A DNA stretch of 51,143 nt from Nitrospinota bacterium (GTDB lineage Bacteria > Nitrospinota > Nitrospinia > UBA9942): the NCBI GenBank assembly GCA_016194325.1, contig JACQBS010000044.1:1-51143 (forward strand), in the 5' to 3' direction. How positions within the stretch are numbered: position 1 is the first letter of the stretch; every line of letters begins with the position of its first letter. The notes under the pieces were generated by a model, which saw only the letters and a program-made list of their open reading frames with translations, did no database searches and was not told the origin of the DNA. The position numbers were made by a program, and so were the translations under genes. Positions 1,256-49,672 of the stretch are shown here, piece after piece.

Positions 1256-1288
1256 ATTCTGCATTTCGCATTCCGCACTCCGCATTCC
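1256..1288. repeat. Heptamer array (ATTCCGC-type, about 4.5 units)
   Basis: attctgc atttcgc attccgc actccgc attcc, immediately after the REC gene stop. Confidence 0.85.
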
Positions 1289-2058
1289 TATTTCCCTTTC
1301 TCCATCTCCTTCAGCTTATCCTTCAATTCCTTCATCTTCAATTCCCTCTGAATGGTAGCCTTCTTGAACCGCTCAAGCTCCTCTACCCGTGTTTTAAGTT
1401 CCTCCTCAACCTTCTTCCGTATTTCAATCTCAGTGGTCAGGATTGCAGTCCTTTCCCTTATCTTTTCCTCAAGATGCTGTTTAAGAGTCAAAAACTCAAG
1501 ATTCAGTCTGTTTAGCTCCTTGTTCTGATAAACAGTGTTTTCGTATGTGGAGAGGAGGAAATTTATAGTCTGCTCCCTCCCCGCCCTTACAAGATGCTCT
1601 TTACCTGCATAGGAAATCTCAATGCCCTTAAGGTCAGGTCTATTTTTAAAGGCAACACGATGTTGAAGGAGGAATTCAATCTTTAAGATAATATAGTCTT
1701 CATTGAAAGGCTTTGTTATATAATTTTCAGCCCCTACCTCAAGACCATTAAGTATATCCTCTGCCTCTGATAATTGAGTAAGGAGTATTACAGGGATATT
1801 CTTTAATTCTTCAATCTTTTTTATTTCACTGCACATCTTATAGCCATCCATAACAGGCATCAATATATCAGATATAATGAGTGAAGGTTTCTCTTTTTTT
1901 GTCATCTCAAGACCCTCAGCCCCGTTCTTTGCTACAGAGACCTTATATTCTCTTTTTACAAGCATCCGTCTGAGTGTCTCTGCCTGCACCTCACTGTCCT
2001 CTACAACCAAGATAAATTGGGAGTTGGGAGTTTTGAGTTCGGAATTTTCTTTAGCCAT
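1288..2058 (-). CDS. Response regulator: receiver domain plus coiled-coil tail, no recognisable output domain
   Basis: ILVVEDS, SDILMPVMDG (phospho-Asp), LLT, YITKPF; C-terminal coil ELERFKKATIQRELKMKELK. Confidence 0.85.
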   Translation of the reverse strand: MAKENSELKTPNSQFILVVEDSEVQAETLRRMLVKREYKVSVAKNGAEGLEMTKKEKPSLIISDILMPVMDGYKMCSEIKKIEELKNIPVILLTQLSEAEDILNGLEVGAENYITKPFNEDYIILKIEFLLQHRVAFKNRPDLKGIEISYAGKEHLVRAGREQTINFLLSTYENTVYQNKELNRLNLEFLTLKQHLEEKIRERTAILTTEIEIRKKVEEELKTRVEELERFKKATIQRELKMKELKDKLKEMEKGK

Positions 2059-3163
2059 GACTGCCTCCTTCTAAAGATTTTATTATCTCGTTTAATATTC
2101 TTGCTATATCTTCAGGTGAAAGGACATACTTTGCCGCGCCAATCTCTATTGCCGCCTTTGGCATCCCGAAGACTATACTGCTGTTTTCATCCTGAGCTAT
2201 TGTGATTCCTCCCGCTCTTGATACTGACAGCATCCCTTCAGCACCATCACGTCCCATACCTGTCAGGAGTATAGCCATTACCTCATTTTTGTAATAATCT
2301 GCAATAGACCTCATTGTAACAGTTATTGATGGCCTGTGGCCATCGTAGAGAGGCTCTGATGTAGAAAAGAACCTCCCCTCTGCATCAACTTTTAAATGGG
2401 TCTCTGGCTGAGGAAAATAGACCGTCCCGGACTCAGGGGATTCCCCTGCCTCTGCAAACTTAACTTTTATCCTGCACAATGAGGCAAGCCATTCAATAAA
2501 ACCATTTGCAAACTCATTTCCAATATGCTGGACACATATAATAGGCATAGGAAAGTTTGCAGGGATCTGCGAGAGAATGGTCTGTAATGCCTGCGGTCCT
2601 CCTGTTGAGGCGCCGATGGCAATAACCTTAACAGTATTGAGTTGGGAGTATTGAGTTTTAAGTAAGGGGACTGGAATCCCTTCACTCCCGACTCCCGACT
2701 CCCGACCCACGACTTCTTTATGCCTGCGAATAGGCACAACTCCTGCAACCATCCTCACCTTTGAGATAAGCTCAAGTCCCTTCTTGTCATACTCTGACTC
2801 AATGCCGCTCCTCGGCTTTGCAAATACATCAACCGCACCTGCCTGCAGGAGCTTGAAGATATTAGCTGAACCCTCCTGAACAGATACACTGACAACAAGG
2901 ATTGGTTTTGGAAATCTGCGCATAACCTCTTTTGTAAACTCATACCCATCCATGACAGGCATGTGGAGGTCAACGCAGAGGACATCAGGATTTAGTTCCT
3001 CAACAAGTTCAAGCCCCTCCTTTCCATTCTTTGCAGTCCCAACAACCTGAATATCAGGTGCATTAGAGAGTATCCTCCCAAGTATCGTGAGGGCGATAGT
3101 GGAATCGTCCACCAATAAAACCTTTATTAATGCGGAATTCGGAGTGCGGAACGCGGAATTCAT
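2051..3163 (-). CDS. cheB: Chemotaxis response regulator / protein-glutamate methylesterase CheB
   Basis: REC domain followed by IGASTGGP, VQH, RPS and LTGMGRDGA esterase motifs. Confidence 0.96.
   Translation of the reverse strand: MNSAFRTPNSALIKVLLVDDSTIALTILGRILSNAPDIQVVGTAKNGKEGLELVEELNPDVLCVDLHMPVMDGYEFTKEVMRRFPKPILVVSVSVQEGSANIFKLLQAGAVDVFAKPRSGIESEYDKKGLELISKVRMVAGVVPIRRHKEVVGRESGVGSEGIPVPLLKTQYSQLNTVKVIAIGASTGGPQALQTILSQIPANFPMPIICVQHIGNEFANGFIEWLASLCRIKVKFAEAGESPESGTVYFPQPETHLKVDAEGRFFSTSEPLYDGHRPSITVTMRSIADYYKNEVMAILLTGMGRDGAEGMLSVSRAGGITIAQDENSSIVFGMPKAAIEIGAAKYVLSPEDIARILNEIIKSLEGGSHG
3129..3160. repeat. Heptamer arm (GCGGAAT-type), inverted partner of 3538-3569; encodes the CheB N-terminus
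   Basis: aatgcggaattcggagtgcggaacgcggaatt; 27/32 match to the reverse complement of 3538-3569. Confidence 0.9.
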
Positions 3164-3513
3164 TTTTTATTGCTCCTTGCTGTTTTAATCGAGGAAACGG
3201 TAATCGCCAAAAGTTCGTTGGCTTCCTTAATTAGAGGTTCAACCTGATCCGACTTAAGAGAACCACTTTCAACCAATAACTCCATCCAATAGATTGCCTC
3301 ATCCGCCTCTTTTTCAACAATCCCCATTTTAGAAATAAAATCAGCAGGCGATTTTGCTCGGCTCGCAGACCTATAATTAGCTCCAACAGATGTTCCTGAC
3401 CTGATTAATTGTTTGCCGATAATATCTGTAGTCCGCCCTTTAGATAATTGCTCAACTAATTTAATTACTTCCAAGGCAAACTTCTTTGTTCTATTTTTAA
3501 GATGTTCACTCAT
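3160..3513 (-). CDS. Four-helix-bundle protein (23S rRNA IVP / TIGR02436 family)
   Basis: LKNRTKKFALEVIKL...QLIRSGTSVGANYRSASRAKS..DFISKMGIVEKEADEAIYWMELL signature; 117 aa. Confidence 0.92.
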   Translation of the reverse strand: MSEHLKNRTKKFALEVIKLVEQLSKGRTTDIIGKQLIRSGTSVGANYRSASRAKSPADFISKMGIVEKEADEAIYWMELLVESGSLKSDQVEPLIKEANELLAITVSSIKTARSNKK

Positions 3514-3537
3514 TTTTTAGTTCTTCTTCGTTATTTT

Positions 3538-47855: not shown

Positions 47856-47867
47856 AAAGTTTTTTTG

Positions 47868-47942
47868 GGCGCCGTAGCCAAGTGGTAAGGCAGAGGTCTG
47901 CAAAACCTTTATTCCCCGGTTCAAATCCGGGCGGCGCCTCCA
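47868..47942 (+). tRNA. tRNA-Cys (GCA)
   Basis: GGCGCCG/CGGCGCC acceptor stem, CTGCAAA anticodon loop, GGTTCAAATCC, CCA. Confidence 0.98.
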
Positions 47943-47989
47943 CACTTAACTAACAACTAATTGTGGTTAGTTATAAGTTGTCGGTGAGT

Positions 47990-49672
47990 TTATAGTTCCA
48001 TTTTTTTAAGTGCCTTAGTTCCCAGAATCATAGGTATAAAGGTTGCTGCAAGGGACAGGAGAAATATAAGGGCATAGCAGATGTATATCTCTATTCCTCC
48101 GATATTATAGAAGAGAAATCTTTTGTAGAAATGGACATATACAGGCCTTGATTCCAACACCACAATCACCCCTATGAAGATAAAGCTCATTATCATGTAA
48201 AGGATTCCGCCAGTGCTCATTGCAACCTCTGCAATATTTTCGTATTTAAAGACAGGATATATTGTCCCCATCCCTATCCCCATCCCAACAAGCCCTGCTG
48301 TTATGAGGAATATGGAAATTATAGATATTGCCATTATGTAACTATCAGCATCTAAAAATAAGTTGGATACTATTACCAGAATTTCAGCCAGAATTAGCAG
48401 CGGGATAAAATACATCCAGAATTTCTCCCACAGAAATTTTTTAAAGTCTATTGGCGATGAATAGATAGCCCAGAAATATTTACCCTCAAGACTCACAGCA
48501 GTGAAAACGAATCTGACAGCAATTGCAGAAAGGACAACACCTGCAAGCCCATGATTTAGCACAGAGGTAAGGTTTTTCAAGAATAAACTATCCAAAGGCA
48601 AATTTCTTATATTGAACACATAGACAATTACAAGTGCACCAAGCATGAACAACTGCGACCACTGGGCAGTATCCCTGAAAAATAGTTTTATGTCCTTCAT
48701 AAATAGGTTCTTCTGTACTGTAAATAACTTTTTGAGAAATCTTTCTATTACTATATAGAAAACAGGCTCTCTCCTTCTCTTTGAAGTTTTAAAAGATTCA
48801 TGTGCAGATGCCCAGCCTGCATGGTATATCTTCTTTGAAGATAAAACCACCAAAACAAAAAATAGGAAGGCTATTAAAAATAAATAGAATATATAAGTAA
48901 TTGAGGAGTCAATCATCCCATTAGCACCATTTATAATTGCCTTCGCAGCCCATGAGCTTGGAAGGAGAGGATAATCTGGAACCTTAAGACCCTCAACAAA
49001 TTGGACTATCACATCATCAGGGACATCCTTTCCAAGAAGCACCTCAGGTTTTAAAAATCTGAAAAACATTACAAGTCCAGCACCGAAGATTAGCCCTAAG
49101 AATGTCATTACCTGATATGTCTTCTTTGCAGGAAAGAATCTCATGAGAAGCATTGTAATTAAAACACCAATAGCGGCCGGTATTACAATAAATGGCAATA
49201 TGACAGGAATGAGGAGAAGATAATAAGACAGGCTGGCATTATATACAACTCCATATGCAGTAAATATTGGAAGGCCGAATATCAGAATCATCCATGAACT
49301 GTTTATTGCAGTCTGTAAGAATTTTGATATGAATACTGTTGATATTTTAAATGGAAAAGACATGAGCAATTCCAAATCGGAAGATAGATAGATAGTAGAT
49401 ATGGCTGTGATTACATTGGAAAATAAGAGCATGGAGAGGAAGGTAAGAAATATTATGCTTAGCAACTGAGTTATAAGGAGTTCTCCAACATCAAGCGGCA
49501 GTCTGTAGAGATAAGTTATTATCCGATAGAAAAAGATGTAATCGCCAATAACGAATAGAAGGGCTAATGTAAAGAGAATAGATAACTTGAAAAGCTTCTT
49601 CCTGAACCCATATACAATACTGTTGTGGATTATTGTGCTGCGGAGTTTAAGGATTTGAAGGAGTTGAGTCAT
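47990..49672 (-). CDS. Putative ABC-2-type exporter permease
   Basis: About 12 TM helices; LYLSSDL-like motif, LPSSW, KDIKLFFRD..QWSQ, SLEGK. Confidence 0.85.
   Translation of the reverse strand: MTQLLQILKLRSTIIHNSIVYGFRKKLFKLSILFTLALLFVIGDYIFFYRIITYLYRLPLDVGELLITQLLSIIFLTFLSMLLFSNVITAISTIYLSSDLELLMSFPFKISTVFISKFLQTAINSSWMILIFGLPIFTAYGVVYNASLSYYLLLIPVILPFIVIPAAIGVLITMLLMRFFPAKKTYQVMTFLGLIFGAGLVMFFRFLKPEVLLGKDVPDDVIVQFVEGLKVPDYPLLPSSWAAKAIINGANGMIDSSITYIFYLFLIAFLFFVLVVLSSKKIYHAGWASAHESFKTSKRRREPVFYIVIERFLKKLFTVQKNLFMKDIKLFFRDTAQWSQLFMLGALVIVYVFNIRNLPLDSLFLKNLTSVLNHGLAGVVLSAIAVRFVFTAVSLEGKYFWAIYSSPIDFKKFLWEKFWMYFIPLLILAEILVIVSNLFLDADSYIMAISIISIFLITAGLVGMGIGMGTIYPVFKYENIAEVAMSTGGILYMIMSFIFIGVIVVLESRPVYVHFYKRFLFYNIGGIEIYICYALIFLLSLAATFIPMILGTKALKKMEL

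Follow-up and report, generated by a model that had tools for sequence, protein, structure and literature searches.

The closest described relatives of the elements considered here are the intervening sequences (IVSs) of bacterial 23S rRNA genes, inserted in helix 25 or 45; those of Coxiella and Leptospira carry an S23p gene. In Coxiella, three tandem GACAGAT heptamers, variable in number, precede the S23p open reading frame (ORF) of the IVS, and RNase III cuts the IVS at the first repeat (Warrier et al. 2016, PMC4990558, accessible text); the same text, citing Lin et al. 2006, describes S23p of X. campestris as a homopentamer of four-helix bundles. We have analysed a 51,143-nt stretch of DNA from a Nitrospinota bacterium (the window; contig JACQBS010000044.1 of GCA_016194325.1), in which short tandem arrays face complementary arrays to form hairpins, two of them enclosing a gene for a four-helix-bundle (4HB) protein. 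The window is contig C67 of genome G000, a 90%-complete metagenome assembly of 3.12 Mb in 175 contigs (39% GC), and its DNA is found in groundwater metagenome runs. Its loaded hairpins resemble the 23S rRNA IVS in that the same protein family lies in the loop of an inverted-repeat stem that encloses the ORF. They differ in being sited outside rRNA, in operons, intergenic slots and coding linkers (both loaded window sites are between chemotaxis genes), and in being accompanied by empty copies in the hundreds, by many unit families and by a second family of cargo genes. No 23S rRNA gene was found in this 90%-complete assembly.

Tandem heptamers are also on record from other bacteria. Xanthomonas has 70-75 pairs of GGGAATC arrays "in convergent orientation", one per strand, and Nostoc has GGGGA(C/T)T repeats; such heptamers are mostly of about 4 units, mostly intergenic, and were read as G-quadruplex formers (Rehm et al. 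2015, PMC4692102, accessible text). The arrays here share with the Xanthomonas pairs the tandem heptamers, the usual number of about 4 units, the mostly intergenic position and the handedness, but the Xanthomonas and Nostoc repeats have one unit per genome as opposed to at least 96 hairpin families here. The main text of Rehm et al. (PMC4692102; supplements not covered) mentions no S23, 23S, xcc0516 or gene partner in the part accessible. TAACTGA repeats are described from Beggiatoaceae, cyanobacteria and Bacteroidetes as 169 direct sets and one inverted set, with 2-6 copies, intergenic and near start codons (MacGregor 2015, PMC4679880, accessible text). The arrays here are like them in that heptamers are common to distant phyla; as far as that text goes, TAACTGA differs in being a single unit, nearly always direct and with no gene inside.

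The short tandemly repeated repetitive (STRR) heptamers of cyanobacteria, reportedly described by Mazel et al. in 1990 and said to occur in helix P12 of RNase P RNA (Vioque, in 1997), are direct arrays without a gene partner. They have in common with the present arrays the tandem heptamers, the many families and an occurrence both between and inside genes. Membership of this group, which the first-pass annotation of the window had mentioned, does not hold. PsaA/PsaB had no match in the 90%-complete genome, the control having matched Synechococcus, so the host is without photosystem I and is not a cyanobacterium, heterocystous or other; STRR is therefore an analogy. The RNase P RNA gene of G000 (C121:17671-18311; L113:1501-2141; RF00010, 308 bits) has 641 nt against a model of 367 positions, with about 275 nt inserted at one helix tip that form inverted repeats and contain no tandem array. 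The insert position is presumably where heterocystous cyanobacteria carry STRR in P12.

Mobile elements offer further comparisons. Eukaryotic Foldback transposons have inverted arms of short tandem repeats, and most copies are without a coding centre; Rickettsia palindromic elements reportedly insert in frame into protein genes (Ogata et al., in 2000). Both are resemblances only; sequences and hosts are unrelated. REPIN-RAYT systems illustrate how families of this kind can be driven by a gene that has its own hairpins on both sides (Bertels and Rainey 2011, PMC3116915, accessible text). As with these and with MITEs (miniature transposable elements that have inverted repeats), our elements are small, palindromic and multi-copy, with a gene flanked by hairpins that it would serve; unlike REPIN-RAYT, the arms are tandem sub-repeats and enclose a gene for a 4HB protein or for a small PD-(D/E)XK nuclease.

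The hairpin-borne 4HB proteins belong to the same fold family as Avd, the accessory protein of diversity-generating retroelements (DGRs). Unlike Avd, they have no reverse transcriptase neighbour, and they reach 33 bits against an Avd model cut-off of 80. A DGR identity of arrays or cassettes was rejected, as there is no adenine-specific variation, no reverse transcriptase at the window cassettes and a DGR only at contig C131. DGR-like writing of the arrays was likewise dismissed: A is found in variable columns no oftener than G, and A>G changes are about as frequent as G>A, most being A/G transitions. In the C131 DGR (C131:33352-35119; L293), an Avd-like 4HB gene (34814-35119, minus) adjoins a reverse transcriptase gene (33352-33951, minus), and long direct repeats differing at scattered positions flank avd.

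Inverted arrays and the genes they enclose

Arrays were called with Tandem Repeats Finder (TRF; period 6-12, at least 2.5 copies, overlapping rows merged), which gave 62 rows and 44 merged arrays in the window. Every unit named in the first-pass annotation is in the TRF output at its place, including ATTCCGC at 1256-1288, 3539-3569, 4234-4269 and 8427-8455. That annotation had counted more than 25 sites; the inverted arrays are real, but by the criteria used here they come to about 23 (about 17 adjacent hairpins, 2 enclosing a 4HB gene and 4 long-range inverted pairs). Genome-wide there are 2084 arrays compared with 179 in a copy whose triplets had been shuffled within 300-nt windows; at a score of at least 40 the figures are 1160 and 14, and for period 7 they are 758 and 19. 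The TRF output holds 859 period-7 rows and 179 canonical heptamers across the genome. Array pairs less than 100 nt apart are inverted in 235 cases and direct in 5, with 14 in a reversed (uncomplemented) control, and a complementary partner missed by TRF was found for 185 of 1535 unpaired arrays (control 5). From these 235 TRF pairs and 185 further pairs, about one third of arrays are in hairpins and about two thirds are solo; the first description, of arrays facing complementary arrays, is incomplete in this respect. Contigs that come independently from three further samples of a single study (X2, X3 and X4) contain the same arrays and both cassettes, and each contig piece differs by 0-1 letters; within the reach of short reads, this answers the concern over assembly artefacts. 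The arrays are real and far beyond chance.

The elements consist of a purine-rich, G-rich tandem array, an AT-rich loop and a complementary pyrimidine-rich array, with 3-5 units per arm. Median values are 4.1 units (10-90%: 2.8-5.1) and 30 nt for the arm, 16 nt for the loop and 77 nt for the whole hairpin, and the hairpins are predicted to fold at about -30 kcal/mol on both strands alike. Of the 235 hairpins, 224 have the purine-rich arm first, as do 88 of the 96 unit families, a handedness independent of the strand read, and 172 of the 185 further pairs; the upstream arm has more G than C at 62 of 68 bracketed loaded loci. With 96 unit families among 235 hairpins, the architecture is, as first proposed, defined by structure and flexible in sequence. 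Nested sites (23519-23675 holding 23571-23625; 34633-34786) and sites in frame within CheA, CheW and CheR are also present, in agreement with the initial description.

The hairpins are intergenic or at a gene edge in 172 of 235 cases, in a genome that is 89% ORF. They span the gap between one stop and the next start, 124 of 193 beginning -10 to +20 nt from the upstream stop. Gene calls were greedily chosen longest ORFs, a crude procedure that over-extends some starts. A role as terminators was rejected: 140 of 170 hairpins lie between co-directional genes, close to the background rate (1276 of 1721), and there is no enrichment between convergent genes. Solo purine-rich arrays after stops (154 versus 55) were set aside and not used as evidence, because purine-rich arrays carry stop codons and bias longest-ORF calls.

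The two loaded sites noted at the outset, 3129-3569 and 5766-6257, do enclose 4HB genes (Table 1), and both proteins exceed the profile cut-offs (PF05635 33.8 bits, TIGR02436 24 bits). Compared by sequence with the PDB, cargo 2 matches 2gsc (E 3.4e-29); 2rld was also matched (E 6.3e-5), and each of these entries has 5 chains. The closest solved relative of the window's 4HB is X. campestris XCC0516. The 4HB proteins had no match in the PADLOC defence libraries. The stop of cargo 1 overlaps the longest-ORF cheB start (ATGA, 3160-3163). The first 14 codons of the longest-ORF cheB would be read from the AATGCGG array, and at a Gallionella locus (L077) the 4HB start is inside an array.

The flank score of a gene was taken from the strongest inverted match on comparing the 170 nt on its one side with the 170 nt on the other; a score of at least 13 was called bracketed, a threshold fixed after viewing G000 and before the metagenome test. 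The 9 PF05635 loci of G000 score 6, 9, 15, 15, 15, 17, 19, 24 and 27, so 7 of 9 are bracketed, against 2.0% of 695 genes sampled from 2919 (1.6% reach 15). The enrichment around 4HB genes that the first-pass annotation had anticipated is thereby borne out. The low-scoring locus on C131 is the true DGR Avd. Among 30 kin genomes, which are not independent samples, PF05635 is present in 16 (families f1, f3, f4 and f5) and absent from the 14 genomes of f2, f6 and f7; 18 of 26 kin loci score at least 13, two loci of G000 itself and two sub-threshold fragments being excluded. Scanning public metagenome contigs with the 5819-6172 protein gave 80 loci at 43-68% identity, of which 68 had 120 nt on both sides. 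At least 13 was reached by 41 of these 68, nearly all with period 7, and by 0 of 61 displaced same-contig controls. Over all loci with adequate flanks, 68 of 102 are bracketed. The 4HB genes are strongly associated with repeat-armed hairpins.

Plain arm-gene-arm is the commonest arrangement (25) among 76 loaded loci; 28 have no clear bracket, and about 8, cassette 2 included, have a third arm, that is, a full hairpin on one side and direct arm copies around the gene. The arms of 4HB genes have units of 6-8 nt, and every 4HB cassette in G000 has its own (AGTAACG, GCAAGT, AGTATCAG, ACAGTTC, AATGCGG, ATTGAAG and AACTTAT). The idea that loaded units are those of the commonest families was dropped; this is so for ATTGAAG/AAGATTG only. 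At G000 C128:2450-3450 (L112), two tRNA genes enclose a 4HB gene that is split into two frames and has AACTGAT/AACTTAT arrays to either side.

Further cargo was sought in all inverted array pairs 150-2000 nt apart (66 pairs), with Pfam applied to 14 enclosed ORFs. This revealed a second family, the GxxExxY PD-(D/E)XK nuclease of PF13366 (131 bits) and TIGR04256 (133-139 bits), encoded on other contigs of G000, outside the window. The remaining enclosed ORFs are ordinary genes (RbfA, cytochromes c and pilin-like among them) that merely lie between two hairpins. The 5 PF13366 genes of G000 score 9, 12, 14, 22 and 25; three are at 13 or above and four are bracketed by eye, by arms with units of 9-11 nt (CACAGATAAA, CACGAATTGA, CACCAGATTTA and AACAGGATA). 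In the relatives, 24 of 27 loci score at least 13, with period 9 (13 loci), 10 (5) or 8 (5), in a set that includes two adjacent twin copies in G026. Overall, GxxExxY arm units are 8-11 nt with a CACAGAT-like core, and an alignment of 19 sequences has no variation in the D, E.K and GxxExxY motifs. The GxxExxY proteins had no match by sequence among solved structures, and one of them compared with defence libraries gave weak Cas4 matches only.

Empty 10-mer copies are near-identical, and their AACCACAGAT...ATCTGTGGTT ends also flank GxxExxY genes. The 9-10-nt families are small, non-coding elements with terminal inverted repeats and many near-identical copies; heptamer families have units in common, not whole-element sequence. 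The loaded members of the 8-11-nt hairpins, to which the 10-mers of the window belong, are those with GxxExxY genes. The original view of 4HB cassettes as the loaded form thus stands for the 6-8-nt hairpins and is incomplete for the 8-11-nt ones. In G026 (C17:22448-23417; L260, L272), two GxxExxY genes 619 nt apart agree exactly in score and in their CGCAAAGA-type arms, and the whole cassette appears to have been duplicated in tandem; G026 belongs to family f6, in which no PF05635 gene was found.

Array repeats are probably under-counted in metagenome-assembled genomes, since arrays fragment short-read assemblies. In the relatives G001-G003, the end of several contigs (G002 C46 and C92 are examples) coincides with a tandem-array hairpin or is a few tens of bases away from one. 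Over window 1200-10500, summed contig depth is raised 2-10-fold in bins with AATGCGG and AAAATCC arrays (bin 3999-4309 has 34-96, with about 2-10 alongside), and many loose contig ends start at arrays. Both units appear to be present in further members of the same groundwater communities. Joints in the cross-sample contig comparison were considered as excision products and rejected, being contigs of other organisms with shared arrays.

Retention of units and turnover of slots

Cassettes share arms according to the identity of their proteins: 5 of 9 pairs at 65% or above, 8 of 135 at 55-65%, 16 of 935 at 45-55% and 2 of 1199 below 45%. Some arm-sharing pairs lie in different flanks and in different families. 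The nearest metagenome relative of cargo 2 (68% identity) also has an AGTAACG-type unit. Orthologues of the 3160-3513 protein, 64-67% identical, are found on Gallionella and Sulfuricella contigs (about 60% GC) in the order cheA stop, AATGCGG array, 4HB, ATTCCGC array, cheB, with the array starting at the cheA stop codon; CheA in these loci is only 45-56% identical. Their cheA genes contain further AATGCGG hairpins, one of which, in Sulfuricella, matches the linker of window 4181-4269. In cyanobacteria, cheA loci have heptamer arrays of other kinds, the AAAATCC unit of the window CheA among them. With the cheA-4HB-cheB cassette conserved in this way in Gallionella and Sulfuricella, not every cassette is a scar or a recent insertion.

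Among congeners, cassette 1 is also present in G001. At cassette 2, G003 has the mcp stop, 2 nt and the cheA ATG (6 nt in total) in place of the 510-nt cassette 5756-6265, a filled and empty pair of the kind that the first-pass annotation had supposed. Slots 12905-12982 and 18297-18427 hold hairpins of other units in G002, and slot 17657-17810 holds another unit in G001 and G003, in each case between flanks 94-97% identical; G001 also differs by exactly one 7-nt unit at 12938-12944. The hairpin at 17729-17813 is replaced by an AAAAATA-type hairpin in G001 and G003, and in G002 another palindromic element is nested at its centre. One slot on C69 is occupied in G000 by a 4HB cassette with AGTATCAG arms and in G003 by a GxxExxY cassette with CACAGAG arms, the boundaries being equal; another is loaded in G000, and in G002 it contains an unrelated, small hairpin. 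Hairpin loops also house nested hairpins and other palindromic elements. Intergenic slots undergo turnover, one cassette replacing another. The position of the 4HB cassette on G000 C24 is taken in G002 by a 1460-nt insert (C159:1543-3003; L296) bounded by another palindromic element, with ORFs that, from their translations, resemble a small membrane protein and a cell-wall amidase.

Array density per 10 kb, taken from one arbitrary 11-20-kb stretch per genome, is 1.0-7.5 in f1, 0-1.0 in f3-f5 and 0-0.5 in f6-f7. Within G000, internal arrays that stay 20 codons or more away from both ends are present in 400 of 3164 ORFs. The arrays leave the reading frames of CheA, CheW and CheR intact, and array-less CheA homologues are gapped opposite residues 106-155 and 495-523.

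Readings of the arrays

We give an even chance to the reading that the arrays are IVS-like foldback cassettes outside rRNA, each with a protein that reads its own repeats. We take the cassettes to fall into two classes by cargo and period, and the empty hairpins to be their cargo-less relatives. Because period is specific to the cargo, arms and protein co-diverge and a unit is retained across phyla, each protein would be expected, from sequence comparison, to recognise its own repeats. The 4HB protein would probably do so as a pentameric ring, each subunit taking one unit; that arms of 3-5 units fit a ring of five subunits is no more than suggestive. The GxxExxY nuclease is predicted to cut at or near its own arrays, and such repeat reading would propagate or maintain the cassette and its arrays, with the empty hairpins as cargo-less derivatives that may be kept going in trans or may be decaying. 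Presence and absence among congeners, slot swapping, nesting and multi-copy families support spread at the DNA level, for which this nuclease, the sole plausible enzyme in sight, is a candidate. The triple-arm form suggests exchange between direct arm copies. In the transcript, RNase III may cut the long interrupted stem as it does in the IVS, and we propose that insertions inside operons would therefore be tolerable; in the conserved cheA-4HB-cheB cassette, cutting may have been put to use.

A broader claim is put forward tentatively, and we are more inclined to doubt it than to accept it. 4HB rings and GxxExxY nucleases would be sequence-specific readers of 7-nt and 9-10-nt repeats and, together with the arrays, would constitute pan-bacterial self-propagating foldback cassettes, with ORF-bearing rRNA IVSs, STRR, the Xanthomonas GGGAATC pairs and perhaps TAACTGA as products or relics; the protein would specify, maintain or spread arrays of its own unit, coding linkers included. 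TIGR02436 and TIGR04256 are very widespread small protein families for which we know of no function, and to our knowledge bacterial heptamer repeats such as STRR have been without a mechanism for more than 30 years. The placing of the gene between inverted arrays, the dependence of period on protein family, the co-divergence of units and the cross-phylum unit provide a joint handle on both puzzles, and these patterns predict specific protein-repeat recognition. IVS-type elements are, from these data, not confined to rRNA, and such repeats occur in the linkers of about one eighth of the ORFs here; several long-unexplained bacterial repeats would be tied to one kind of element. A literature search, with subscription journals and supplements outside it, found the separate pieces but no paper that links the TIGR02436 and TIGR04256 families to tandem-array hairpins generally.

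Several observations weigh against the foldback-cassette reading. Greater stability falls to the sense strand in 67 hairpins and to the antisense strand in 75 (p = 0.97); hairpins fold equally on both strands, so nothing points to RNA-level selection, and this G-U asymmetry comparison supports such selection neither way. About two thirds of the arrays are solo, and the commonest heptamer families (AAGACAG, AAGCAGT and AAGGGGC) have no loaded copy in the 90%-complete assembly. Of the PF05635 loci, 2 of 9 in G000, 8 of 26 in the relatives and 27 of 68 on metagenome contigs fall short of the bracket threshold. The filled/empty junction of G003, the one clean junction, has no visible target-site duplication, and the cheA-4HB-cheB cassette looks more like a fixed operon part than a mobile element. 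We also know of no catalytic activity for 4HB proteins.

The arrays might instead be binding sites, with the 4HB and GxxExxY proteins as autoregulated, sequence-specific regulators of RNA or DNA and the dispersed arrays as their targets; nothing would then be mobile, and congeners would differ through recombination and slippage. The cheA-4HB-cheB cassette and the further AATGCGG arrays of the same operon, kept across phyla, are consistent with such a regulon, as are the co-divergence of arms with protein, the placement of hairpins in stop-to-start gaps and the post-transcriptional regulator that MacGregor proposed for the Beggiatoaceae TAACTGA repeats (PMC4679880, accessible text). We consider it unlikely, however, since genomes whose flanks are 94-97% identical carry unrelated units, and even different cargo classes, in the same slots, 10-mer elements are near-identical, multi-copy and found nested, the genome lacks a cognate gene for most unit families, and 400 of 3164 ORFs have internal arrays. 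Arms that travel with their gene into different flanks and families, an AATGCGG unit that persists across phyla, a period predicted by cargo class, 10-mer elements conserved over their full length, ends included, and a near-universal handedness that random seeding does not give make it distinctly unlikely that the arrays are generated locally. That explanation would have polymerase slippage on a seed and template switching at breakage-prone intergenic sites produce the arrays, and separate selfish genes home into the loops; it draws on differences of whole units (the 7 nt at 12938-12944; L132 with one unit more than L124), on the very many unit families (179 canonical heptamers), on the loops being favoured targets of other elements and on the slippage idea for heptamers cited by Rehm et al. 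(PMC4692102, accessible text).

Elements that are small, palindromic, intergenic and multi-copy could also be ordinary MITEs moved in trans by an unlinked transposase, of Y1/RAYT type for example, with the small ORFs as passengers, and REPIN-RAYT offers a precedent (PMC3116915, accessible text). We rate this as very unlikely: the genome has 2 Y1_Tnp genes, neither with arrays within 700 nt, so that a RAYT/Y1 link was rejected; the G003 junction shows no target-site duplication; and the genes enclosed by hairpins are repeatedly of only two families in many phyla, other bracketed genes being ordinary ones that merely lie between two hairpins. Regulation, local generation and movement in trans may each hold for part of the arrays. 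Hardly any weight can be given to assembly artefact or chance low-complexity sequence. The assembly is metagenomic, in 175 contigs, and contigs of the relatives often end at arrays, but the shuffle controls, the frames kept through arrays in CheA, CheW and CheR, the agreement of independent contigs from three other samples and the same architecture in 80 unrelated metagenome contigs and in named genomes all argue against it.

Remaining features of the window

The minus-strand chemotaxis operon that carries both cassettes occupies the first 10.5 kb, in the order cheY-like, cheB, 4HB, cheA, 4HB, mcp, cheW, cheR. Coordinates of all features are collected in Table 1.

Table 1 Cassettes, hairpins and tandem arrays of the window, with array limits in parentheses
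Feature	Coordinates	Strand	Remarks
Solo ATTCCGC array	1256-1288		Just past stop of cheY-like gene
Long-range inverted pair, TTGGGAG (2017-2043) / ACTCCCG (2684-2714)	2017-2714		Inside cheY-like and cheB ORFs
Cassette 1 downstream arm, AATGCGG x4.4 on +	3129-3159		84% complementary to 3538-3569
Cargo 1, 4HB gene, 117 aa	3160-3513	-	PF05635 65 bits, TIGR02436 88.5 bits
Cassette 1 upstream arm (gene orientation), ATTCCGC x4.4 on +, AATGCGG on mRNA strand	3539-3569		Starts at cheA stop codon
In-frame CheA hairpin, TGCGGAG / ATTCCGC (4234-4269)	4181-4269		Residues 496-525
ATTTTGG (5076-5107) and TCCGCAC, abutting, non-complementary	5076-5140		In frame, CheA residues 206-227; kept in G003
In-frame CheA linker hairpin, GATTTTG / AAATCCA	5304-5407		Residues 117-151; arrays of other units there in G003
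Cassette 2, whole: hairpin, 4HB gene, second copy of one arm	5756-6265	-	
Cassette 2 third arm (AGTAACG)	5766-5796		Direct copy of 6183-6213, complementary to 6227-6257; architecture RY[g]Y
Cargo 2, 4HB gene, 117 aa	5819-6172	-	PF05635 143 bits, TIGR02436 137 bits
Full cassette 2 hairpin, just upstream of cargo 2, with arms at 6183-6213 and 6220-6257, loop ATTAAT	6183-6257		AGTAACG/AGTGACG
In-frame CheW hairpin, TGCGGAT arm and CCGAGTT/CCGCAC arm	8020-8107		33 unrelated nt in G003
Solo arrays in CheW, ATTCCGC (8427-8455) and GATTTTG (8633-8658)	8427-8658		
Small TTCGTAA hairpin	8949-9003		Between cheW and cheR
AAATCCA hairpin and ACTCCTA array in CheR	9532-9650		Arrays of another unit in G003
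Intergenic hairpin, AAAGCTA (12910-12941) / GCTTTGA	12910-12969		One unit fewer in G001; ATTTACG hairpin in slot in G002
Perfect solo array, CTTCTGA x5	14184-14218		Unit many-copied in G001-G003
Hairpin, AAGATGC (17729-17765) / AAACTTG, roughly complementary	17729-17813		
8-mer hairpin, GTGTCAAA (18360-18389) / ACTCTGAT	18360-18428		6-mer AAGGTT hairpin in G002, flanks 97% identical
Hairpin of GGAGAAA-type 9-mers (TRF array 22933-22971)	22929-23035		
Second GGAGAAA-type hairpin, 8-mer hairpin (23571-23625) nested in loop	23519-23675		
Two arrays, CAAAGTGG and TTTTCTCCC, mutually non-complementary	25914-26003		
10-mer hairpin, CACAGATTAA (34633-34660) / TAATCTGCGA, further array (34682-34703) in loop	34633-34786		
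Intergenic hairpin, AGTAGGC (38507-38540) / TTACTGC	38507-38577		
Solo 10-mer array, CACGGATTAA	40072-40094		
Empty 10-mer foldback, CACAGATAAA, outer ends AACCACAGAT...ATCTGTGGTT	41740-41830		Multi-copy family; loaded members carry GxxExxY gene
10-mer family of 41740-41830, opposite orientation	45641-45730		
Inverted repeat, 37-nt arms, 81% complementary, CACAGA/CACTGA-like words	47746-47856		

The hairpins at 22929-23035 and 23519-23675 flank a fragment of an MpsC-like ORF (64 aa; 23115-23309, minus strand). A 1049-nt segment of the window (11214-12262) is absent from G002, where its flanks abut; it has a nucleotidyltransferase-like ORF (11521-12021) beside a Phd/YefM-PIN pair (10570-11318). 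At 14353-14497 the window has a G+C-rich palindromic element of 137-145 nt (CCCCTTTGATGGGGAGGGAG...), absent at the matching site in G001, G002 and G003; its relatives, a different MITE family, sit in tandem-array hairpin loops elsewhere (e.g. C35:6486-6587).

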